Below, in pieces: positions 28,232-60,036 of a stretch of 64,000 bases of DNA. The translations under genes were made by a program, and so were the position numbers. Source of the DNA: an uncultured Ohtaekwangia sp. GTDB taxonomy: Bacteria > Bacteroidota > Bacteroidia > Cytophagales > Cyclobacteriaceae. The notes under the pieces were generated by a model that saw only the letters and a program-made list of their open reading frames with translations, was not told the DNA's origin and searched no databases. The DNA is taken from NCBI GenBank assembly GCA_964429845.1, contig CAYSCT010000012.1:18412-82411 (forward strand), given 5' to 3'. Position 1 is the first letter of the stretch; each line of letters starts with the position of its first letter.

Positions 28232-28235
28232 GCCA

Positions 28236-28622
28236 TCAATGCCATTGAATTTTAGCCGGATAATTTTCAAACCAGGGATCTTTGGTTACAATTACCAGGT
28301 TTTCGCTTATAGCCTGAGCGATCAGCATGCGGTCGAAGGGATCGCGATGGTGGAATGGAAGGTCGGACAGCTTCAATACATGATTTTTGGTGATAGGGAG
28401 TACATCTAATCCACTCAATTCAATAATCTGGAAGATTTCCCCGATGTGTTTACCTAATTGTAATTTGTGAAGAGAATGTTTGATGCTTTTTTCCCACACG
28501 CTTGCCATGCTAATCAGGCAAGAGTTATTTGGGTCTTCAATAGCGTGCTTAACGGAGTCAGGGAGCAACGGATCATCGGTCATAAACCAAATTACCGCGT
28601 GGGTATCCAGTAGGAGATTCAT
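28236..28622 (-). CDS. vapC: PIN-domain toxin (VapC family)
   Basis: LLDTHAVIW, SVWE, HRDPFDRMLIAQA, VTKD. Confidence 0.92.
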   Translation of the reverse strand: MNLLLDTHAVIWFMTDDPLLPDSVKHAIEDPNNSCLISMASVWEKSIKHSLHKLQLGKHIGEIFQIIELSGLDVLPITKNHVLKLSDLPFHHRDPFDRMLIAQAISENLVIVTKDPWFENYPAKIQWH

Positions 28623-28834
28623 TAAACGTATTCTCTAAAGTCTTCCAGTGGTTCGTCAAAGTCCGACCTCATCGTTATTAATCCCTTGGCCAAACCTGCC
28701 CTTCGTTTTGGGTGTAAAGAACTGGCTTTGGCAGCTTTTTGTTTTTCCAAAAGAAATTCTATAAAGTTCCTAACCTCCTTTTGAAGCGACTCTGGGAGTG
28801 ATTTTATTTCATCGTATAGGGAGGCATGCTTCAT
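28622..28834 (-). CDS. DUF2281-type antitoxin
   Basis: LPESLQKEVRNFIEFL and C-terminal GLAKG...DFDEPLEDF; 1-nt overlap with vapC. Confidence 0.85.
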   Translation of the reverse strand: MKHASLYDEIKSLPESLQKEVRNFIEFLLEKQKAAKASSLHPKRRAGLAKGLITMRSDFDEPLEDFREYV

Positions 28835-28837
28835 ACA

Positions 28838-28845
28838 CAAATATA
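28838..28845 (-). promoter_or_regulatory. -7 element directly before the antitoxin ATG
   Basis: TATATTTG on the minus strand, 3 nt before ATG 28834. Confidence 0.55.
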
Positions 28846-28857
28846 CAAAATGCTATC

Positions 28858-29508
28858 TCAAACAATGTTGTCGATTGAACTGGCTGTTTCTAGTGTGAAT
28901 GAACCAATTCTGGTTCTGCAAAGTTCGGTCAGGTAGGCGCCCACCCCCAGTTGGTTGCCCACATCGCGCGCCAGGCTGCGTATGTAAGTACCCTTCGAGC
29001 AAACTACCCGAAAGTAAACGCGGGGCCATTCTATCTTTTCCACCTCAAACAATTTGATTTCCACCTCGCGGCTCTTCAGCGCGGCTTCTTTGCCTTTGCG
29101 GGCGAGTTCGTAGGCACGCTTTCCAGCTACCTTGATGGCCGAATGAAGTGGGGGAACCTGTTGAATGAATCTGGTAAACTGACTAAAGGCTGCCCTCACA
29201 TCGGCCTCCTTGAGGTGTGCAATGTCAAGGGGTGGCGTGGCCTCTGTCTCCAGATCGTGCGAAGGCGTTGTCTGCCCCAAAACAAAGACCCCCGTATATT
29301 CCTTTTCTTCAGCCTGGAACTTTTCAATCTCTTTAGTCATCTTGCCGGTGCAGATAATCAGCAGTCCCGTGGCCAGCGGGTCCAGAGTGCCGGCATGGCC
29401 AATCTTTTTCAGTTTCAATTTGTAGCGAAGTTTGTTCACTACATCGAACGATGTCCAGCCAAGCGGCTTGTTAACCAGCAGAACCCGATCGTGAGGGGTG
29501 GTTTGCAT
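28858..29508 (-). CDS. truB: tRNA pseudouridine(55) synthase
   Basis: KPLGWTSFDVV, GHAGTLDPLATG, CSKGTYIRSLARD. Confidence 0.96.
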   Translation of the reverse strand: MQTTPHDRVLLVNKPLGWTSFDVVNKLRYKLKLKKIGHAGTLDPLATGLLIICTGKMTKEIEKFQAEEKEYTGVFVLGQTTPSHDLETEATPPLDIAHLKEADVRAAFSQFTRFIQQVPPLHSAIKVAGKRAYELARKGKEAALKSREVEIKLFEVEKIEWPRVYFRVVCSKGTYIRSLARDVGNQLGVGAYLTELCRTRIGSFTLETASSIDNIV

Positions 29509-40557: not shown

Positions 40558-41849
40558 GATATTACAGTACCAATAATCGGAACAAACTGGTAAGCCTGAA
40601 AGAGGCGGTGTTGAAGGGGCTGGCGCCCGACCAGGGTTTGTATATGCCCGAGCGGATCGAACCGCTGCCAGCTTCATTCTGGCAAAATATCACAACCTAT
40701 TCTTACCAGGAGATGGCCTTTCATGTGGCGAAACAACTATTGGGGCATGCACTACCAGATGAAGATCTGCAGGGTATGGTAATGCACACGCTGTCCTTTG
40801 ATACTCCGGTAGTGGAGGTGGAAAAGGATGTGTTTTCGTTGGAGCTTTTCCACGGGCCTACGCTTGCTTTCAAAGATGTGGGTGCACGCTTTTTATCTGG
40901 TCTGCTTGGAGTCTTCGCCCGGAAGATGAACCGTGAAGTGATCATTCTGGTAGCCACATCAGGCGATACCGGCAGTGCGGTGGCCAACGGCTTTTTGGGG
41001 GTGCCCGGAACACGGGTGGTGATCTTATTTCCGTCAGGGAAAGTGAGCCAGATACAGGAGAAACAATTCACTACATTGGGTCAAAACACGGTAGCTCTTG
41101 AGGTTGATGGAACATTTGATGATTGTCAGCGCCTGGTGAAACAGGCGTTTTCTGATGCGGAGTTGACAGACCAACTCTTTCTTTCGTCAGCCAATTCCAT
41201 CAATATTGGCCGGTTAATTCCCCAAACGTTTTACTATTTCCGGGCCTACCAGCAACTCTGCTCCTTGGGCCGGCCTTTACAGTTTTGCGTACCCAGCGGC
41301 AATTTTGGTAATCTAACGGCAGGGCTATTGGCTACCCGTTTGGGATTACCGGCTCGCCCATTTATTGCGGCCACCAACCTTAACGATGTGGTGCCGCGGT
41401 TTTTAAGGGGCGAAGCCTTTGCGCCACGTGTTTCCATGAGTACCGTGAGCAATGCCATGGATGTAGGTAACCCCAGTAACTTTGCCCGTATGCTTGATTT
41501 GTATCAGCGCGATGATGAGGCGGTTCGACAAGCGATATGGGGAGCCACCTTCGATGACGCTGCCACCCTTCATGCCATGCGGGACGTTTGGCAGCGCACC
41601 GGCTATCTGCTCGATCCCCATGGGGCCGTTGCTTATTTGGGATGCCGCCAATACCACGATTCGCGAACCATGCGTGTGTTTCTTGAAACGGCCCACCCAG
41701 GCAAATTCAAAGAGGTGGTGGAACGAGCGGTAGGGCAGGAAATAGCACTGCCCGACAGGTTGAAAAAGTTTTTGGGTGCAGCGGCCCACACCGTAAAGAT
41801 GACGAATGACTACAACGCGCTGCGGGAATACCTCAAGCAGTTGGCCTGA
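40554..41849 (+). CDS. thrC: Threonine synthase
   Basis: FHGPTLAFKD PLP lysine, ATSGDTG, PSGNFGN, TAHPGKF. Confidence 0.96.
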   Translation: MRYYSTNNRNKLVSLKEAVLKGLAPDQGLYMPERIEPLPASFWQNITTYSYQEMAFHVAKQLLGHALPDEDLQGMVMHTLSFDTPVVEVEKDVFSLELFHGPTLAFKDVGARFLSGLLGVFARKMNREVIILVATSGDTGSAVANGFLGVPGTRVVILFPSGKVSQIQEKQFTTLGQNTVALEVDGTFDDCQRLVKQAFSDAELTDQLFLSSANSINIGRLIPQTFYYFRAYQQLCSLGRPLQFCVPSGNFGNLTAGLLATRLGLPARPFIAATNLNDVVPRFLRGEAFAPRVSMSTVSNAMDVGNPSNFARMLDLYQRDDEAVRQAIWGATFDDAATLHAMRDVWQRTGYLLDPHGAVAYLGCRQYHDSRTMRVFLETAHPGKFKEVVERAVGQEIALPDRLKKFLGAAAHTVKMTNDYNALREYLKQLA

Positions 41850-41856
41850 TCATGCA

Positions 41857-42504
41857 CTAACGCCACCCTTGTTCACCCAATAGCGGCACGAAAGCAAAGT
41901 TGTCGAACGTCTCTGTGGTGAGCTTGCCCTTTCTTTTGGTGATGCGGAGCATCTTTTGCGATTCGCGATTGCCCACTGGGATGATCATGATACCGTTATC
42001 GGCCAGTTGGTCGGTGAGGGCCGTAGGCACGATGGGTGCACCGGCTGTTACAATGATTTTATTGAAGGGCGCTTTTTGCGGCAAACCTTTCGAACCGTCT
42101 CCCTGAAACAAAAACAACTTGTAGCCCAACAGCGGCAAGAACGCCTTTGTTTTTTCGTACAACTTTTTGTTGTATTCAATGCTGTAAACCGTAACGCCCA
42201 TCTCAGCAAGTATGCAGGCCTGGTAACCCGAGCCGGTGCCTATTTCCAGCACTTTGTCGCCTGGTTGTAGCTCCAGTTTTTCCGTTTGAAACGCCACCGT
42301 GTAGGGCTGCGAAATGGTTTGTCCTTCACCTATCGGAAAGGCTTTGTCTTCGTAGGCGTGGTTCAGCAAGGCATTGTCGAAGAAGAAATGCCTCGGAACT
42401 TTGCCCACAGCGTCTAAAACGCGCGTGTCGCGGATGCCTTTTTCTTTCAGCTTTTTTACCAGTTTGTTGCGCAAACCCCGGTGTTTGTAGTTGTCTTCGA
42501 GCAT
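41857..42504 (-). CDS. pcm: Protein-L-isoaspartate O-methyltransferase
   Basis: GQTISQPY, LEIGTGSGYQA, IIVTAGA, FVPL; start set at ATG 42504. Confidence 0.95.
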   Translation of the reverse strand: MLEDNYKHRGLRNKLVKKLKEKGIRDTRVLDAVGKVPRHFFFDNALLNHAYEDKAFPIGEGQTISQPYTVAFQTEKLELQPGDKVLEIGTGSGYQACILAEMGVTVYSIEYNKKLYEKTKAFLPLLGYKLFLFQGDGSKGLPQKAPFNKIIVTAGAPIVPTALTDQLADNGIMIIPVGNRESQKMLRITKRKGKLTTETFDNFAFVPLLGEQGWR

Positions 42505-42517
42505 GTGCCTTTTTAAG

Positions 42518-42733
42518 ATTTCCACACAGCCTTGTGGATGGTTTGTGGATTAAAAAACTCTGTTTCCATGCGAAAAAACGGCTTTTTGAGGGCTTTGCAA
42601 AGTTTTATAAAATGTTTAGGAAAAATGAAACTGATCGTCCTAATTTAGGGTTCTCATACACACAGTAAAAGCTTTTTGCCATAGCGTAAAACTGTGTTAA
42701 ACCTGACCCTGACAGTAGGTGGTTTTTACCACA
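42518..42733. other. Cluster of six DnaA-box-like 9-mers in a non-coding region (candidate oriC or DnaA-regulated site)
   Basis: Near-matches to TTWTNCACA at 42518(+), 42533(-), 42544(-), 42654(+), 42693(-), 42725(+); AT-rich stretch at about 42595-42630. Confidence 0.35.
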
Positions 42734-42769: not shown

Positions 42770-45469
42770 TCAATTACCGATTAAGATGAAAGGCGCCCAA
42801 AAGTAGGGGTCTGCAAAGTGCTTTTCCTGAATCATCTTCTGTTTGGCTTTCTGAAGGGCTATTTTGTAATTACCACCTGGGTCGGCCAACAGAAATCGGT
42901 AAAAATCTGTCATCAATTGGGTAGTAGATTCATCGGCCACACTCCAGAACGATACCACCAGGTTTTTGGCACCTGCATAAACCAAAGCACGCGAAAGACC
43001 AATAACACCTTCTCCTTTCGATACCTTTCCCAAGCCGGTTTGGCAGGCAGATAATACAGCCAGATCTGCAGAGAGCGACAGATTGTAAATTTCTCCGGCA
43101 TATAAATTACCATCTTCATGGTTATCTGTATTAAGGAATATGCGCGACAGCTCCGGGTTACGTTCGTCTACAATGCCATGCGTTGCAAAGTGTAAATATT
43201 TATACTGACTAAGATCTGTTTGTTTGATGGTTGTTTCGCTTGCCTGGGTGTGCGTTACCACATCGCTTTGGTTTCCAAAGAGCAATGAAATGGTGTTTAC
43301 CTCTATTTCGCTTCCAGGTAAAAATCCAAGCCCATTGTTGTTGGTAAATTCCACCGGGGCACACAAGAAAATAGATTTTGAATTTTGCTTGCCTTGTACC
43401 TTGGCCTTTTGCAAAAGCAAACCTGCCGAGAATTCGTAGCTAATGCCATACCTGGTAGCCAGAAAAGACTGTGACGCAAAATCGCCTTTTACTTTTTTGA
43501 TAGGTAACGCTTCAAAGGGTAGCGTAGCCAAGCGGCCCGCAGGTAGTAACGTAACTTCTGTTATGCGGGCAGGTAATGGAGGCACCAGCAATTTACGAAG
43601 CCGATCGGCCGTTTGGCTATAGGCATCGAACGAACGGTAATACAGGCTGTTCATCCAACCTTTCGCCAATCGCTCGAAGTCGGTGGGGAGGGCGAGGTTG
43701 CGAATACGGAAAGCGTTTCCCGTAAGGATGAATTGATACAGCCGCCCGGTTTTTTCTGCTACAAAGTAACTTATAATGGCCTGCTGCTCCTTAAGGGAGC
43801 TTTGAAGTTCAGCGATGGTGGGGGCCGTTGAATTGAACTTCAGATTGTAGTAGTTCGGAAATTCACTTTCCAGCCTTTTAATAAAGTTGGCATAGTCAAT
43901 ATTCAGTTGAAAGAGGGTTTCTCGCAGGTATTTTTCTTCTTCCGCATTGGGTTTACCACTTAACTTCTGCGATAAGAAGGAAATGGCAGCCTTCAGATTT
44001 TTTTCTTCCTCCAACAAAGCTGCCGGTATCCCTGAAAAGGATTTGGCCTGTGTATCAGCTATTGATTCCTGCAATACAGCCGATTTACTTTTCTCGGCAA
44101 AATAAAAAGCTTCATTGATATACTTTCGTTTGTCTAAAACTACATCGGTGATCTCAAGCGCAATTCGGACACCATCTTCATATAGTTCTGTTGCAAGTTC
44201 CCCCAAGGATAATTTGTCACTTTCGTTTGAACTTTGGTGTCGTAGATTATCGATTAGTGTGTCGCAAGAATGAAGACATTTGATAGCGAACTTTAAATCA
44301 TTCAAACTTAGCGTCATAGTAGCATAGCGTATTTCTAAAGCTTTAGCCTTATAAAGAAAAGAATACATCAAAGCTCTTGCATTGTAATAGCCAGATGTTG
44401 CTGGATTAATTCTGCTGTCCATTGTATTGAAATTAGGGACATTAGCGATCATTGCCTTTTGATAACACATCATTGCACTATCAATATCATTCTTACTTAC
44501 ATAAACGTTGCCAAGTAAATTAAACGCATAAGCGAGATCCGGACTTTTGGTTCCAAAATGCATTGAATAGATATCGATAGCTTGTTGTATAAATTTAGTT
44601 GCTGATTGTGGTTTTTTGACACCGAGATACGATCTACCTAAGTTAGTAAGCACAATCGCTTGAGAGGGATGCGGATTGGGGTAAATAGATTCCCAAACTT
44701 TTAGTGCACGCTCAAAATGAATTATCGCATCTCCATAAAGGTTTTGTGACAGATATGCAATGCCAAGATTTGTATTAATAACAGCAATCTTCGGATGATC
44801 TTGACGATACAAAGAGGAATAGGCTCCTAACGCCATTTCATAATAATCAAGTGCCTTGTTGGCATCTATTTCTAAATAAGCGAGTCCCAAATCGTTATAA
44901 GAAGCTGCAATCAAACTCACATTATTTGGGGCTTTCTCTTTCCTTATTGCCAGCGCTAATTGTAGCTGTTCAACAGCTTTTGAATAGTTACCAACTACCA
45001 CCAAAGTATTCGCTAATAATGACAATGCATTTGCGGTCTCGAGACCATTTTCCTCTTTCATAAGGATAGGTATTGCCTCCTCTAAACTATCAAGTGCTAT
45101 ATCTGACCTACCTTTGTTCATGTTTAGGTAAGCAATAGTACATTTCAGAAGCGCTGTATTCAATTGCTTTTGATCAAGATTTGGAAGAAGACTTTTTAGG
45201 TTCTCAATTTGAATTTCAGCTTCATAAAGTAGCCCAAGTTGGATTAATGCAAGTGCTTTTTTATTATTCAAAAAGAATGTTAGCTCTCCATTTATTTGCT
45301 CAAATCTGTCAATCTCGGAGATCGCAAGTTCATATTTCGATTCAAAAAGTAATTGTTCAATGCGATCCAAGGCTTTCGTATGGTTGTTATCCTGTCCGTA
45401 AACTGCGTCCTTTGCTAGGAAACTAATCAAGAAAATTGCTACTAACTTTAAGATTCGTGGATAACTCAT
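42770..45469 (-). CDS. Exported TPR-CHAT (caspase-like, peptidase C14/CD clan) protease
   Basis: Signal peptide MSYPRILKLVAIFLISFLAKDAVYG-Q; kinesin-light-chain-type TPRs (HPKIAVINTNLG); CHAT dyad LHFATHG and LSACQTG intact. Confidence 0.92.
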   Translation of the reverse strand: MSYPRILKLVAIFLISFLAKDAVYGQDNNHTKALDRIEQLLFESKYELAISEIDRFEQINGELTFFLNNKKALALIQLGLLYEAEIQIENLKSLLPNLDQKQLNTALLKCTIAYLNMNKGRSDIALDSLEEAIPILMKEENGLETANALSLLANTLVVVGNYSKAVEQLQLALAIRKEKAPNNVSLIAASYNDLGLAYLEIDANKALDYYEMALGAYSSLYRQDHPKIAVINTNLGIAYLSQNLYGDAIIHFERALKVWESIYPNPHPSQAIVLTNLGRSYLGVKKPQSATKFIQQAIDIYSMHFGTKSPDLAYAFNLLGNVYVSKNDIDSAMMCYQKAMIANVPNFNTMDSRINPATSGYYNARALMYSFLYKAKALEIRYATMTLSLNDLKFAIKCLHSCDTLIDNLRHQSSNESDKLSLGELATELYEDGVRIALEITDVVLDKRKYINEAFYFAEKSKSAVLQESIADTQAKSFSGIPAALLEEEKNLKAAISFLSQKLSGKPNAEEEKYLRETLFQLNIDYANFIKRLESEFPNYYNLKFNSTAPTIAELQSSLKEQQAIISYFVAEKTGRLYQFILTGNAFRIRNLALPTDFERLAKGWMNSLYYRSFDAYSQTADRLRKLLVPPLPARITEVTLLPAGRLATLPFEALPIKKVKGDFASQSFLATRYGISYEFSAGLLLQKAKVQGKQNSKSIFLCAPVEFTNNNGLGFLPGSEIEVNTISLLFGNQSDVVTHTQASETTIKQTDLSQYKYLHFATHGIVDERNPELSRIFLNTDNHEDGNLYAGEIYNLSLSADLAVLSACQTGLGKVSKGEGVIGLSRALVYAGAKNLVVSFWSVADESTTQLMTDFYRFLLADPGGNYKIALQKAKQKMIQEKHFADPYFWAPFILIGN

Positions 45470-45541
45470 ATATCGATTGTGGGTTGTCAAATTACAAAAA
45501 TGCCTTAGTCAATAAATTTACTCATCTAAATTAATATTTGT

Positions 45542-45775
45542 ATGAAGATTTCTATTAGAACATTATTGCTGTCTGTGATGATTACGGCTGGTTATATAAC
45601 TACTGGTTGCGTTTGTAACTCCACAACCCGAACTGTTTATGGTGACAGTGGCGGTTGTAGTGACTCTGGGTATTGTACTCCGGGCGTGCCTACACCAATT
45701 TATCGAGAAACTACCACAGTATGTGAGGGCTGGTTTTCAACCACAACTTCTACTATTCGCGAGGAGATCAAATAG
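45542..45775 (+). CDS. 77-aa secreted or lipo-peptide, Cys/Thr-rich
   Basis: Basic n-region, hydrophobic h-region, TTG-C23 lipobox-like site; 5 Cys and 16 Thr; fills the whole gap between two genes. Confidence 0.7.
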   Translation: MKISIRTLLLSVMITAGYITTGCVCNSTTRTVYGDSGGCSDSGYCTPGVPTPIYRETTTVCEGWFSTTTSTIREEIK

Positions 45776-45784
45776 GCTCTATGG

Positions 45785-46714
45785 TCAGAATCGGTAAAAG
45801 TAGGTTACAGACGATACAAACTCGCGGGTAAGGCCATCGGGATTCACTTTGCGTTGAATGATTTTGTGGCCCAACAGTAGTTTAATTCCCGATTGTACAT
45901 TGAAGTTATAGCCCGTGGTAAAGATACCCGATAACGCCATCCCTTTGGCATCTGGAGACCTGGTAATAGAGCCATCTCCCTCTATGATTTGATCGCGTGT
46001 AATCCGGTAAATGGGCAACAATCCCAAAGAAAAATTGACACGCGAGAAGCGGAAGTTACGCTCTGCGCGCAGCATGACATCGGTGCCGCGCGTAAGCAGG
46101 TTGCCCTTGGGATATTTTTCGATATAGGCCATGTCTTGATCGCTGCCAGTCCAGCGGCTCCACAAAAACTGATTGTTGTTCTGGTTAAGCGGCACCTGTA
46201 TGCCCGTGGCGAACAACCACTTCCGGTTAATGAGCGACAGACCCGCGATGGCATCGTACGTGCCCAGGCTGGTTTGGTAATACATGGGCAGGGGGAACCC
46301 GTCAATGTCTTTGTCGGAATTGTTGGTTGGGATTTTGCCACCCAACGAGAGGTTCAAGTCAAATTGGTCGGACGTGAAGATATTGCGTGTAAAGCAGATG
46401 GAAATATCACCCATGCCAGAAGTGTTGGCTAAAGTTCCTGTAACAGCCTGATAGGGTAACTTGAGTTGGAATGTGTTACGACTGTTAAGGGAGAAGTTCA
46501 TATCTGCGGTGGCCACATAAATGATGGGTGTAAGGCTGGTGGTGCCCCTGTACAAGTTTAACTCCATCGAACGCAGCTTGACGGCTATTTTTTTGTTATA
46601 GGGCTGGTCGGGTTTCATGGCACCCATGGTGCAGAAGCCCGCATCGCTACAGCCTTGTGTCCAACCGAAGTGTGTTGCGAGGCAGAGCATCGAACACACG
46701 AGTATTTTCTTCAT
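45785..46714 (-). CDS. Conserved Bacteroidota outer-membrane beta-barrel with N-terminal CSDAGFC motif
   Basis: Signal peptide then Q-GCSDAGFCT; YQTSLGTYD; C-terminal TYFYRF beta-signal. Confidence 0.75.
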   Translation of the reverse strand: MKKILVCSMLCLATHFGWTQGCSDAGFCTMGAMKPDQPYNKKIAVKLRSMELNLYRGTTSLTPIIYVATADMNFSLNSRNTFQLKLPYQAVTGTLANTSGMGDISICFTRNIFTSDQFDLNLSLGGKIPTNNSDKDIDGFPLPMYYQTSLGTYDAIAGLSLINRKWLFATGIQVPLNQNNNQFLWSRWTGSDQDMAYIEKYPKGNLLTRGTDVMLRAERNFRFSRVNFSLGLLPIYRITRDQIIEGDGSITRSPDAKGMALSGIFTTGYNFNVQSGIKLLLGHKIIQRKVNPDGLTREFVSSVTYFYRF

Positions 46715-46829: not shown

Positions 46830-47810
46830 TTACATACCAAGAGACTGGTTTTCGATCGAAGCCAGTTCGATGATTTTTTCGTATTCGGTTGCGTTCAGAT
46901 CGTTGAAGAAGTAGTGGATGGGATTTACCTGGCCCCCGCTAATCAGCACCTCGTAGTGCAAATGAGGTGCGGTAGAGAGCCCCGTGTTGCCCACATAGCC
47001 GATTAACTCGCCACGCTTTACCTTCTGGCCTTTGCGAACGGCAAAGCCGTGCATGTGGGCGTAGCGTGTGCGGTAGCCAAAGCCATGATCTATCTCCAGC
47101 ATTTTGCCGTAACCACTAAAGCTTACCTGCACTTCGTCTACTATGCCATCGGCTGTGGCATAAATAGGTGTGCCAATGGGCGCTGCAAAGTCGATGCCGG
47201 TGTGCATTTTCTTTACCTTGTAAACCGGGTGCACACGCATACCAAAGCCAGAAGCCAATGCAATCAACTCTTTGTTGGCAATGGGTTGTATGGCTGGTAT
47301 GGCCGCGAAGAGCTTCTCCTTATTTTCGGCCAGTTGCACGATTTCATCCTGCGACTTTGACTCGATGTAGATTTTGCGTTTTAGCTTATCTACCGCTTCG
47401 CTCAACTGCACAATGGTTTCTTCGTGCACCATGGATTTGTCGCGTATATCTGCATAGCGGTCGGCCCCGCCAATGCCGGCATCGCGCACCGATTTTTCAA
47501 TAGGCTCCGCCCCCAACACCACCCTGTAGATGTTGTCATCGCGGTGCTCCATGTCGGCCAGAATGAGGTTGAGTTTGTCTACTTCCTTCTGCAGGTTTTC
47601 GTAGTAGTACTCCATCTCCTTTACCTCGTTGCGCAGAATCAGTTCTTTGGGCGACTCGAAATAGTTGTTGTACAGCAGCAGCAGACCCACGGCCAACCCC
47701 AGCACTAGCGAAAAGAAACCGAGGGTATTCAGAATGATGTCACCGGTAGAGGTGCGTACCCGCTCGTACTTACAGGTTTCGGTGTCGTAGTAGTATTTAA
47801 TCTTTGCCAT
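46830..47810 (-). CDS. M23 family metallopeptidase
   Basis: MHTGIDF, YAHM, STAPHLHYEV; N-terminal TM helix and coiled coil. Confidence 0.93.
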   Translation of the reverse strand: MAKIKYYYDTETCKYERVRTSTGDIILNTLGFFSLVLGLAVGLLLLYNNYFESPKELILRNEVKEMEYYYENLQKEVDKLNLILADMEHRDDNIYRVVLGAEPIEKSVRDAGIGGADRYADIRDKSMVHEETIVQLSEAVDKLKRKIYIESKSQDEIVQLAENKEKLFAAIPAIQPIANKELIALASGFGMRVHPVYKVKKMHTGIDFAAPIGTPIYATADGIVDEVQVSFSGYGKMLEIDHGFGYRTRYAHMHGFAVRKGQKVKRGELIGYVGNTGLSTAPHLHYEVLISGGQVNPIHYFFNDLNATEYEKIIELASIENQSLGM

Positions 47811-56743: not shown

Positions 56744-57448
56744 ATGAAAACCCATCTACTTTCCAGCGACCGTGCCATGATGGTAAGGGCGGGGGCCATC
56801 GCATGCTGGCTTTCGGCTGTTACCACCATCGGTATCCACGCCTTTTTTCAATATAGCGCCACTACTTTCGAAGAACGGCTTATGCTGTTTCAAAACACTA
56901 CCTACCTGGCAAACCGCTGGTGGGTGATGGTGCACTGCCTGCTGGCGATCGTAGGGATGTGGGGCTTTTTGCTCGTGCAATGGAAAAAGGCCGGAGCCAC
57001 CGCTGGGCTGGGTTTTGTCTTCTTTGTGATTTTCGGAGTGGCAGAAATTTTCAGACAACTCGCGGTATTGTTTTACCTCAACGGCATGCGCCAACAATAC
57101 CTGCTTACCGATCAGGCGGAGACAAAGGCTTTCCTGGCACAGCAACTCGATTTGTTCGGGCTGATGTCGTACCCGCTCTTCGGGCTCTTCATTCTGGCAT
57201 TCGCGCTGGGCAACTTTTTCTACGGCTTGAGCCTGCGGCACGAGTCGGGCTTCGGAAAAGCATTGAGTGTGTTGCTCCTGCTGTGGGCAGCAGGAAGCTT
57301 CGCGGCCTTCGGTAACGCGTTTTGGAAAATCCCCTGGCTGTCGGATTTTCTGCCCCATTATAACTTGTGGTACCAGCCCTTAATGCGCGTGTTGCTGGGC
57401 TTTTGGCTATGGCGGGCCGTTACCCGGCAAGAACAGGTAGTGCAATGA
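56744..57448 (+). CDS. Hypothetical multi-pass membrane protein
   Basis: About six or seven hydrophobic helices; co-oriented with its neighbours. Confidence 0.7.
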   Translation: MKTHLLSSDRAMMVRAGAIACWLSAVTTIGIHAFFQYSATTFEERLMLFQNTTYLANRWWVMVHCLLAIVGMWGFLLVQWKKAGATAGLGFVFFVIFGVAEIFRQLAVLFYLNGMRQQYLLTDQAETKAFLAQQLDLFGLMSYPLFGLFILAFALGNFFYGLSLRHESGFGKALSVLLLLWAAGSFAAFGNAFWKIPWLSDFLPHYNLWYQPLMRVLLGFWLWRAVTRQEQVVQ

Positions 57449-57505
57449 CATTCGTCAGCACCGGGTAGCGTTGCCACTGCTAGTTTCGTTTCATTAAACG
57501 AAGAG

Positions 57506-57706
57506 ATGATGAAACGATTGGTCATTACCCTGAAAAAACGCGTGGACCCCTAGCACAAGCTCATCGCTACCGAATGGATCACAGAAGAAGAAATCAAGAT
57601 CATCCGCAAAAAGTACGGCAGCCAGTTCGATCCCGATGAACCGGTTATTCAATCCCTCACCGATCAGTTGATGCTGGTTTCGTTTACGGTCTGGATTCAC
57701 GAGTAA
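57506..57706 (+). pseudogene. 66-codon ORF interrupted by an in-frame TAG at codon 16
   Basis: MMKRLVITLKKRVDP*HKLIATEWITEEEIKIIRKKYGSQFDPDEPVIQSLTDQLMLVSFTVWIHE*; hand-translated. Confidence 0.5.
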
Positions 57707-57798
57707 ACTCCGCTCACAGGGTTAAAAGAGCGCCTAAAAAAGGCTTGTTCAAATAAGCCCTTCTTTTTGCCTTACTTGCAGTAAACAAGGTTCGCAAA

Positions 57799-60036
57799 AT
57801 GAAATGGTTGATGGCGCTGCTGGCGCTGGCAGTGAGTCTTCCGGTTTCCGGTCAAAAAAGTCGTCCATCATTCACCATCCACAAGGCCCAAGGCCCCATT
57901 CGGGTAGATGGGGTGGCAAACGAACCCGATTGGCAAGCTGCCGAAGTGGTAAAAGAGCTGGTTCAGCAATTTCCCAACGATACGTCACGCTCGCGACTGC
58001 GAACAGAATTTCGACTGACCTACGATGATCGTTTTATTTACGTGAACGCCCTGGCGTACGACAATACCAAAGGATCGTATGTGCTCTCCTCGCTGCGCAG
58101 AGATTTCCGCGGTGGGGGGTTGGATGGCGTGTCGGTGGTAATCGACCCCTTTCAGGATGTTACCAACGGCTTCTTTTTTGGGGTGAGCCCAGCAGGTGTG
58201 CAACGCGAAGGGTTGATTTCGAACGGCTGGTTGGTGAATGAAGACCTCGACCTTTCGTGGGACAATAAATGGTATGCCGAGTCGTACATTGGAGAGAACT
58301 TTTATTCGGTGGAGATGGCCATACCTTTCAAAACACTGCGCTACAAGCCCGGCAACGCCCGGTGGAACATCAAACTCTATCGAATAGACAGCAAAGAAAA
58401 TGAACGCTCGGTGTGGCCCTTTACACCCCGCAACTTCGAACCCGGCAACCTGAACTATGCAGGCGAGATGATTTGGGATACCCCACCGGTGCATCCGGGC
58501 CCCAACATTTCGGTAATTCCCTATGTGGCCGGTTTGGCTTCGAGAAATTACCTGGCAGACCCCACCGAAGCGCGCAACAATGCACAGATAGGGGGCGATG
58601 CCAAAATTGCCGTTACATCTTCGCTCAACCTCGATCTGACGGTGAATCCCGATTTCTCTCAGGTGGAGGTAGACAGGCAGGTTACCAACCTCGATCGCTT
58701 CGAGCTGTTCTTCCCCGAAAGGCGCCAGTTCTTCCTGGAAAATGCAGATCTTTTTTCTTCGTACGGCCACATCTTTGCCCGACCTTTTTTCTCCAGAAGA
58801 ATTGGCGTGAGTCGCGATACGGCCACCGGCCAGAACATTCAGAACCAGATACCCTTTGGCCTACGGCTGAGCGGCAACCTCAACAAATACTGGCGCATGG
58901 GCCTGCTGAATATGCAGACAGCCGAAATCAAATCGGCCAACGTTCCATCGTACAACCACACCGTGGCCACGGTGCAGCGAAGGGTGGGGTCTAACTCCAA
59001 CATACGGGGTATTTTGGTTAACCGCCAACTGATACGCAACGACACGCTGGACTTCAGGCCGGCAGGGTATTTCTATAACCGCGTGGCCGGTATCGATTAC
59101 AACTACAACTTTCGCGATAACCGCTGGACTGGCAACGTATTTTTTCACAAACAATTTACCGAGAACACCACTCCACAGGGATTTGCACATGGCTACAACC
59201 TGTCGCACAACACACGCAGCCTTAACCTCAACTGGTTCCACCAGGTAATTGGAAGAGACTATAACCCTGCCGATGGCTATGTGCCACGTAACGGTTACAA
59301 GCGCATTTCTCCCTCGGGGTCGTTTTTTATTTATCCGCAGTCGCAGCTCATCAACAACCACGGCCCCACCTTCGACATGGCTTTTATTTGGGATGACACC
59401 TTCGGTTTTACCGATCGGGAGCTCAATTACGGATGGGCAGCGGTGTTGCAGAACCAGGCCGTGCTGCTGCTGAACTACAGAAACACGTACACCTTTCTTT
59501 TCAACGACTTTGACCCCACCAACTCACCACGCGAAGACAACGCAGAAAAACTTCCGGCCCAGACCGGTTATACGTATGGCAATGTAAATCTCAATTTTAT
59601 TTCCGATCCGCGCGATCTCTTCAACTTCCAGTTCACGGCAGTGGCTGGTAATTATTTTAACGGGCAACGTTACGGGTTCTCAGGTCTTTTCAACTACCGC
59701 TATCAGCCTTATGGCGTTTTTTCCCTCGACTTGAATTACAACCGCATTGTGTTGCCTGCGCCTTATGCCACAGCCGATATTTACCTGGTGGGCCCACGGG
59801 TGGATTTAACGCTTACCCGTTCTGTTTTTTTTACTTCGTTCTTCCAATACAACAGTCAGTTTAAGAATGTAAATATCAACTCACGGCTACAGTGGCGGTT
59901 CAAGCCCGTGTCTGATTTGTTCATTGTATACACCGATAATTATTATTACTCGTTCGATGAGCCACGCCTGTACAGCAACTTTTTTTCAAAAAACAGGGCG
60001 TTGGTGGTCAAGCTTACCTATTGGTTCAACCTGTAA
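57799..60036 (+). CDS. CBM9-like / DUF5916 outer-membrane protein
   Basis: IRVDG..EPDW, TVNPDFSQVEVD, FFPERRQFFLEN, FFSRRIG; C-terminal YWFNL. Confidence 0.88.
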   Translation: MKWLMALLALAVSLPVSGQKSRPSFTIHKAQGPIRVDGVANEPDWQAAEVVKELVQQFPNDTSRSRLRTEFRLTYDDRFIYVNALAYDNTKGSYVLSSLRRDFRGGGLDGVSVVIDPFQDVTNGFFFGVSPAGVQREGLISNGWLVNEDLDLSWDNKWYAESYIGENFYSVEMAIPFKTLRYKPGNARWNIKLYRIDSKENERSVWPFTPRNFEPGNLNYAGEMIWDTPPVHPGPNISVIPYVAGLASRNYLADPTEARNNAQIGGDAKIAVTSSLNLDLTVNPDFSQVEVDRQVTNLDRFELFFPERRQFFLENADLFSSYGHIFARPFFSRRIGVSRDTATGQNIQNQIPFGLRLSGNLNKYWRMGLLNMQTAEIKSANVPSYNHTVATVQRRVGSNSNIRGILVNRQLIRNDTLDFRPAGYFYNRVAGIDYNYNFRDNRWTGNVFFHKQFTENTTPQGFAHGYNLSHNTRSLNLNWFHQVIGRDYNPADGYVPRNGYKRISPSGSFFIYPQSQLINNHGPTFDMAFIWDDTFGFTDRELNYGWAAVLQNQAVLLLNYRNTYTFLFNDFDPTNSPREDNAEKLPAQTGYTYGNVNLNFISDPRDLFNFQFTAVAGNYFNGQRYGFSGLFNYRYQPYGVFSLDLNYNRIVLPAPYATADIYLVGPRVDLTLTRSVFFTSFFQYNSQFKNVNINSRLQWRFKPVSDLFIVYTDNYYYSFDEPRLYSNFFSKNRALVVKLTYWFNL

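Follow-up and report, generated by a model that had tools for sequence, protein, structure and literature searches.

The question raised by this locus is whether the two halves of one protease gene, which differ in base composition, also differ in descent, and whether such an exchange is a habit of the gene family or a single event. The gene lies in a stretch of 64,000 nt from an uncultured Ohtaekwangia sp. (contig CAYSCT010000012.1 of assembly GCA_964429845.1, the whole stretch hereafter the window) and encodes a predicted exported TPR-CHAT protease (42770..45469, minus strand). Translation probably starts at the ATG at 45469, for a protein of 899 aa, and the open frame itself reaches a TTG at 45490 (42770-45490, minus strand, 906 aa); in the 906-aa numbering, used for residues from here on, the protein has a predicted signal peptide, a tetratricopeptide repeat (TPR) array at ~53-350, a helical scaffold at 371-551 and a CHAT domain at 627-906. 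The first-pass annotation rested on four hand counts of G+C, 31/60 and 32/60 in the CHAT half (at 43021 and 43561) and 22/60 and 17/60 in the TPR half (at 44401 and 45241), all of which are exact, and proposed that the TPR half had been swapped by recombination together with an adjacent small open reading frame (ORF), as a variable specificity cassette on a fixed protease. The swap itself, small ORF included, has held up, given an identity of 38-39% in the N half, incongruent trees for the two halves and a spacer and ORF that are missing in 18 relatives. The gene is very probably a true recombinant, in which 1.34 kb of native sequence gave way to a 1.67-kb tract whose source was a member of the same protein family that is richer in AT, deeply diverged and so far unsampled.

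Full-length orthologues of the protease are found in nearly all genomes of the genus, where they are 44-52% identical to the window protein and the gene order is always M23 peptidase, 309-aa protein and TPR-CHAT protease, followed by pcm and thrC where the fetched flank was long enough. The set of close relatives consists of GCA_964602295.1 (L025), GCA_049324055.1 (L027) and two Logan assemblies; the contigs L025-L028 have their gene order in common with the window over ~14.7 kb, and the close-relative proteins P0136 and P0267 come from them. L027 is a near-conspecific genome with 94% DNA identity over 10.5 kb of syntenic flanks, its neighbouring proteins being 0.93-0.99 identical to those of the window, and in a three-way alignment the identity of the window flanks is 0.941 to L027 and 0.823 to L025. 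When the window is compared with the L027 genome by BLAST, homology is lost at 44110/44111 and regained at 45784/45785, which puts at a single position the switch that the first-pass annotation had placed at roughly 44100-44200. Between these points lies an AT-rich block (44111..45784, 1674 bp, GC content 0.37) that replaces a native segment of 1337 bp in L027 and is therefore longer by 337 bp, with a DNA identity of 0.52 within the block versus 0.94 in the flanks. The replaced 5' coding part (44111..45469, minus strand) covers codons 1 to ~453 of the 899-aa frame, that is residues 8 to ~460 of the 906-aa frame, and includes the signal peptide, all of the TPR array and, of the scaffold, the first three helices.

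The three-way comparison makes the contrast between the segments plain. In the 5' coding part the window is 0.52 identical in DNA to both L025 and L027, which are 0.78 identical to each other, and over residues 30-458 the protein is 0.39 and 0.38 identical to L025 and L027 respectively as against 0.86 between those two. In the C half (42950-44114) the DNA identity is 0.842 between the window and L025, 0.761 between the window and L027 and 0.77 between L025 and L027; at the protein level residues 459-846 are 0.90 identical to L025 and 0.84 to L027. In the final 180 nt of the gene the identity to L027 is back to 0.93, and residues 847-906 are 0.97 identical to that genome. Searches with the separate halves gave what had been predicted of them, with residues 480-906 alone finding P0136 and P0267 at 90% and 85% identity in the CHAT half against ~38-39% in the TPR half, where an exhaustive search gave P0136 just 42%. 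The ratio of N-half to C-half identity is 0.81 for the window protein versus 1.01 ± 0.09 for the other pairs in a 15-sequence set, and the excess N-half distance of the window protein is limited to residues 1 to ~440. Counts of informative sites in the triplet are 654/149/158 in the upstream flank, 970/149/120 in the downstream flank, 120/91/423 in the N block and 72/166/76 in the C block, a pattern that differs between regions (chi-square 1183, 6 degrees of freedom).

Both ends of the block can be placed to within a few bases. The inner crossover falls on the FYFAEKSKSAVL motif, in a zone (44040..44115, minus strand) at the codons for (A)FYFAEKSKSAVLQESIADTQAKSF. The motif does not vary within the family and stands at the start of scaffold helix 455-485; 3' of the crossover the window is near-identical to L025, including a common exact 17-mer, and 5' of it the sequences are unalignable. 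Since the crossover falls at this scaffold helix, three scaffold helices were exchanged along with the TPR array and the signal peptide, and the exchange did not follow a domain border. The outer end of the block is the stop codon of the 309-aa barrel gene, where no homology is visible. A second copy or silent cassette of the block was not found in the same genome, and a repeat scan of the block ends returned short chance repeats only, none of them significant. One contig (11.6 kb) of a Logan assembly of run SRR12997673 matches the window with 100% identity along 6992 bp that include both junctions; the 77-codon ORF of the block is present on it too and is called there as a gene.

Trees of 212 homologues were compared for the two parts of the protein. 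In the C-part tree the window protein groups with P0136 and P0267 with a support of 1.0 and on a branch of 0.057, in the N-part tree P0136 and P0267 keep the same seven-member clade and the window protein is excluded from it, on a branch of 0.925 versus a median of 0.127. A grouping of the three proteins in the N part is rejected by the approximately unbiased (AU) test (difference in log-likelihood 57.3, p = 0.0007), and in trees lacking the close relatives the N half shifts to another clade on a long branch. Adjacent segments of the one gene hence carry significantly different phylogenies, as expected of a mosaic gene; the first-pass annotation had named equal conservation and congruent trees as what would speak against a swap, and neither was observed.

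The breakpoints also coincide with a step in base composition, from a GC content of 0.37 in the block to 0.45 in the rest of the gene and 0.50 in the genome. In finer division the 5' coding part (44115-45469) has a GC of 0.365, the spacer upstream of it (45470-45784) one of 0.394, the 3' part (42770-44114) one of 0.446 and the genome one of 0.497. GC at third codon positions (GC3) is ~0.30 over codons 1-475 of the gene and then 0.40-0.61, with 0.47 for the 3' part, as compared to a genome mean of 0.591 (standard deviation 0.066); a change-point fits best at codon 480 (z = -5.25), and by this measure the gene ranks 12th among 475 ORFs of at least 600 aa. Only 0.35% of the genome is as AT-rich as 44115-45784 when scanned in segments of 1670 bp. 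On the same scale the CHAT half, at 0.446, stands at the 6.7th percentile, and the description of it as host-like is only roughly right because both its GC and its GC3 of 0.47 lie below the genome norm (0.59 ± 0.07 for GC3). The amino-acid composition is shifted as well, the residues F, Y, M, I, N and K making up 0.331 of the replaced coding part versus 0.252 in L027, and because of this shift to AT-rich codons the protein sequence indicates a long residence of the block in an AT-rich genome, with apparently little amelioration since transfer.

That an AT-rich TPR half might be a general property of the family was considered and rejected, as GC is equal between the halves (within 0.03) in 14 same-genus orthologues and GC3 is flat in six other TPR-CHAT paralogues of the same genome. 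The step is specific to the window's copy and is no family trait. Larger GC3 steps within genes do occur elsewhere in the genome, in a 1126-aa ORF on contig C2 (0.71 to 0.31) and, on contig C7, in ORFs of 2405 aa (0.40 to 0.62) and 955 aa (0.44 to 0.68), and these may be further mosaics or shadow ORFs.

Judged by its sequence the foreign half is a bona fide member of the same protein family. It is collinear with the family and keeps all invariant N-half residues; of the columns that are at least 90% conserved it keeps 78/90, the lowest value among the members checked, which otherwise average 0.957. Within the family the N block leans to a clade of P0002, P0007, P0013 and others (98 in the Shimodaira-Hasegawa-like approximate likelihood ratio test), the loci of which (L034-L036) have the usual tight junction between barrel gene and protease gene and a GC content of 0.40-0.51. 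In one of them, the JGI 3300001372 contig L034, a run of N at ~2370-2380 shortens the called P0013 to 808 aa, and the real start abuts the barrel gene. Neither these loci nor the genome's own paralogues gave anything above 48% identity as a donor; with the best collinear relatives of the block only 36-48% identical, the donor must be regarded as unsampled, and a donor lineage, the remaining mark of a mosaic gene, was not found.

Together with the TPR half the block brought in a new spacer of 315 bp (45470..45784) between the barrel gene stop and the protease start. In 18/18 relatives these two abut or overlap by 5 nt or less, and both the spacer and the ORF it contains are missing from all 18. 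As the abutting junction of all the relatives is lost, expression of the protease is likely to have been uncoupled from the barrel gene, and translational coupling would no longer operate in the window. A scan of the spacer for promoters and terminators found nothing above chance, with sigma-70-type patterns that do not cover Bacteroidota promoters. The ORF has 77 codons (45542..45775, plus strand), is divergent from the protease gene and has no homologues among 300 genomes of the order. Its motifs GCSDSGYCT and YRETTTV resemble the barrel N-terminus (GCSDAGFCT…YRGTTSL), and it scores 12.1 bits against a hidden Markov model of the barrel, for which 500 shuffles reached a maximum of 6.5; it is possibly a remnant of the barrel gene of the donor, or else it may encode a small exported peptide.

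The CHAT half is not the constant element that the first-pass annotation took it to be. Residues ~460-846 (42950..44110, minus strand) form a second discordant block, closer to L025 than to the otherwise nearest L027, and it is regarded as such because its DNA identity to L027 is 76% versus 94% in the flanks, yet it is 84% identical to the more distant L025. Either a second exchange took place or the donor was already mosaic. Since the identity between L025 and L027 is alike in both halves (0.78 and 0.77), an L025-like source of the window's C half is favoured. Inside the barrel gene, at ~46454-46530, consecutive informative sites set the window apart from both L025 and L027, which possibly marks one more small patch of recombination. 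The protease locus is more mosaic than its surroundings.

Some results count against a replacement in the lineage of the window. Without the two close relatives in the trees, the native placement of the N part is not rejected (AU p = 0.26). No donor of the N half was found among 5.8 billion clusters and 1.84 billion representatives, where the best collinear match was 42-48% identical, nor in scans of JGI metagenome and GTDB genome contigs, with a best collinear match of 36-40%. The affinity to the clade of P0002, P0007 and P0013 is unsure because the branch of the window protein is long. The Logan contig and the genome assembly may derive from the same reads. Finally, with three genomes the C-half discordance arose either in the window's lineage or in that of L027.

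The cassette that was first proposed would be a recurring one, the TPR half and the small ORF being routinely swapped onto a constant protease under conflict with phages or competitors, and this is unlikely. It would fit a swap that spans the entire TPR array, the arrival of the small ORF, in which the barrel loop motif recurs, and the additional mosaicism of the C block and the patch in the barrel gene. It is however at odds with the family as a whole, since among the 576 pairs of the 212 members with an identity of 75% or more in one half, the only strongly discordant ones are the two that include the window protein (0.39 vs 0.90 and 0.38 vs 0.86), and the next largest gap is 0.57 vs 0.75. 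Other pairs of the 15-sequence set keep to the ratio given above, in the set of 212 the C half is uniformly 0.07 above the N half (standard deviation 0.04), and the placement of L025 and L027 agrees between the halves. The absence of silent copies from the genome and of significant flanking repeats, a small ORF without a homologue in the 300 genomes of the order and a breakpoint inside the scaffold helices rather than at a domain border are equally hard to reconcile with it. Nor does the locus resemble programmed variation by silent-cassette gene conversion, a shufflon or a diversity-generating retroelement, given that 1/212 members is swapped, that donor copies were not found and that the locus has no recombinase genes, its neighbours being housekeeping genes. 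A variable specificity cassette therefore finds no support in a gene that is the only half-swapped one among 576 close pairs, has no second copy and keeps 78/90 conserved positions.

It is very unlikely that the polarity is the reverse, with the window allele ancestral and those of the L025 and L027 lineages acquired. Three genomes are compared and the polarity comes from composition and family trees alone, which leaves some room for this reading, yet the N halves of L025 and L027 have native GC and fall with the same seven-member clade as their C halves, the tight barrel-protease junction is present in all 18 relatives including distant ones, and the window block is 13 GC points under its genome. 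A contig that joins reads of two organisms is just as improbable; the genome is possibly metagenome-derived, but such a chimera would require two joins, one of them without any shared sequence, the separately assembled Logan contig is identical across both junctions, the reading frame is intact across the junction and genome contamination is 0.16%. Rapid divergence in place, by very fast, AT-biased mutation of a native N half under relaxed or positive selection, is effectively refuted, for although the N part nests in the family, keeps most conserved residues and has no donor found for it, the flanks differ by 6% from L027 and the block by ~48% in DNA, its edges are knife-sharp, its GC3 is 0.30 vs 0.59 in the genome, it carries 337 extra bp and native placement is rejected by the AU test.

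Returning to the recombinant gene, its product is predicted to be an exported protease with its active site in order. The CHAT domain (PF12770) is matched at residues 627-906 with E = 5.4e-62 and 210 bits (cut-off 24), over profile positions 3-289 of 289, and several Pfam TPR families match residues ~60-350. The dyad of H771 (HFATHG) and C816 (LSACQTG) is invariant in 91 aligned homologues, and from the sequence it would appear intact, as the first-pass annotation had stated. The same annotation described a Sec signal peptide and no transmembrane helix, and the predicted signal peptide is indeed the sole hydrophobic 19-mer of the protein. From the ATG at 45469 the N-terminus reads MSYPRILKLVAIFLISFLAKDAVYG/QDNN, the predicted cleavage being …AVYG/QDNN, and a Q after the hydrophobic region is found in all 16 orthologues read. 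In Bacteroidota the signal peptidase I "Q-rule" places a Q at position +1 of the mature exported protein. An AlphaFold2 model built from 91 homologues (mean predicted local distance difference test, pLDDT, 88.4; predicted template modelling score 0.84) runs from TPR helices (53-350) through the long helices of the scaffold (371-551) and a small beta unit to a CHAT alpha/beta fold, so the modelled chain combines a TPR array, a helical scaffold and a C-terminal CHAT domain in the manner of TPR-CHAT proteins of the separase/Csx29/DdvA type. PADLOC gave no defence-system match for the protease beyond a weak TPR hit, and a PDB sequence search nothing beyond generic TPRs.

The partner gene (45785..46714, minus strand) is native, with a nucleotide identity to L027 of 0.90 (flanks 0.94), and encodes a 309-aa putative exported beta-barrel protein with a signal peptide, an all-beta prediction and a C-terminal YFYRF. 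The mature N-terminal loop QGCSDAGFCTMGAMKPDQ of this protein does not vary among 17 orthologues whose identity is otherwise 52-93%. An AlphaFold2 model of the protein, built on five aligned sequences, has low confidence (pLDDT 59.7) and best matches FapF and the COG4313 channels (template modelling (TM) scores 0.57-0.68), a match that is no more than indicative of a FapF-like outer-membrane barrel. On either side are an M23 peptidase gene (46830..47810, minus strand) as native syntenic anchor upstream and pcm, for protein-L-isoaspartate O-methyltransferase (41857..42525, minus strand), as that downstream; the neighbours of the protease gene are the M23 peptidase gene, the barrel gene, pcm and thrCBA. 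The module that the barrel and the protease form is conserved throughout Cytophagales, and the literature searches brought up no characterisation of it.

Foldseek with the protease model places Csx29, the TPR-CHAT protease of Craspase in type III-E CRISPR, at the top (E ~5e-15, TM-score 0.5-0.61 on the target), next separase and DdvA. Csx29 has a TPR array, a helical scaffold and a CHAT domain with a His/Cys dyad in the same order, and its non-catalytic part relays partner binding to the dyad (PMC11506125). The two are however only 13% identical, the window protein is predicted to be exported where Csx29 is cytoplasmic, and near the window gene there are no Cas7-11 or CRISPR genes, where Csx29 is encoded alongside Cas7-11/gRAMP and Csx30/31, which sets it outside Craspase. 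DdvA, an anti-sigma factor of Myxococcus xanthus (PDB 8rot/8rw5), is a periplasmic TPR-CHAT protein and a proposed sensor of protein signals (PMC11506125). It is the only extracytoplasmic TPR-CHAT protein known to have been characterised, and it is one of the fold matches, but its TM-scores are low (0.26-0.28); it has a cytoplasmic zinc anti-sigma domain, a transmembrane helix and a paired extracytoplasmic function (ECF) sigma factor, whereas the window protein has a signal peptide only, and the Pfam hits of the gene and its neighbours include no anti-sigma or sigma domains that would make it DdvA-like. Separase shares a helical (TPR-like) N-terminal region and a CHAT-type caspase fold, though it is eukaryotic, far larger, securin-regulated and 11-13% identical. 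In the Pseudomonas Fap system (FapF/FapD) an outer-membrane channel gene is likewise tightly coupled to an exported cysteine protease gene, the window locus differing in that it lacks amyloid subunit genes and in that its barrel model has the low pLDDT given above. FapD is a C39-type protease and not a CHAT protease.

For the gene as a whole there is also a genetic parallel. Classical mosaic genes, such as those for penicillin-binding proteins and porins in naturally transformable bacteria, arise when DNA of diverged donors enters by homologous recombination. The window gene has the same sharp blocks of differing phylogeny and composition in one intact frame and the same crossover in a conserved stretch; it differs in that its block is more diverged (~50% in DNA, 39% in protein), covers a whole functional half and has one end that is non-homologous, with a gain of 337 bp. 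Recombination is well known to yield mosaic genes, so no new mechanism is involved, and the swap is a well-resolved new example of mosaic gene formation. It is an unusually clean case, with surroundings 94% identical, TPR halves 38% and CHAT halves 84-90% identical and a junction resolved to a few bases, and it shows that the TPR array and first scaffold helices of a TPR-CHAT protease are exchangeable as a unit across deep divergence. Two natural alleles are thereby available for asking what the TPR half recognises. Readings of a "sensor cassette" from a step in GC need to be tested across the family, the swap in the window being a singleton.

A course of events may be proposed on this basis. 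The gene belongs to a conserved envelope module of Cytophagales that comprises, in this order, the M23 peptidase, the FapF-like outer-membrane barrel, the exported TPR-CHAT protease and pcm, and the replacement of 44111-45784 very probably took place in the window lineage after its split from GCA_049324055.1. The inner crossover probably used the invariant stretch coding for FYFAEKSKSAVL within the scaffold helices, the outer end falling exactly at the barrel stop codon without visible homology, and the import would have supplied, for the protein, a new signal peptide, the complete TPR array and three of the scaffold helices and, ahead of the protease start, the spacer of 315 bp with its ORF of 77 codons. 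The chimera would still be a working exported His/Cys protease, now with the ligand-binding TPR surface of another lineage. In the periplasm or at the surface the TPR-CHAT protease may work with the FapF-like channel, and by analogy with Csx29, separase and DdvA its TPR-scaffold part may bind a protein or peptide partner and control the alignment of the dyad; were that the case, the swap would change or re-tune partner recognition. The swap may thus have replaced the recognition surface and at the same time uncoupled expression from the barrel gene.

A more far-reaching idea is that the barrel/TPR-CHAT locus is a selected hot-spot of diversity in an unstudied system of envelope surveillance or secretion gating, with the TPR half recognising the invariant N-terminal Cys loop of the barrel or a mimic of it, and with the block importing as a matched pair a foreign TPR sensor and a small exported peptide, the product of the 77-codon ORF, that has the donor's form of the loop. 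This is unlikely. If it were true the swap would re-key sensor and peptide as a unit, akin to the periplasmic protein sensing proposed for DdvA.

Away from the protease, 38 kb compared with the L027 genome contain two other non-homologous segments, both ordinary accessory indels. The segment at 28232-28900 has no homologous sequence in L027; it contains a PIN-domain gene (VapC-like, 128 aa) and is probably an accessory toxin-antitoxin insertion. The 3-kb segment at 56750-59786 is missing at the syntenic site of L027 and encodes a protein of 234 aa that no Pfam family matches, together with the greater part of a DUF5916/CBM9 protein of 745 aa. Nearer to the protease gene, in thrC (41424-41873), it is L025 that is unusually diverged from both the window and L027 (0.61-0.73 nucleotide identity), its ThrC having an amino-acid identity of 0.78 versus 0.88-0.98 for the neighbouring proteins, and the sequences suggest an exchange in the L025 lineage.

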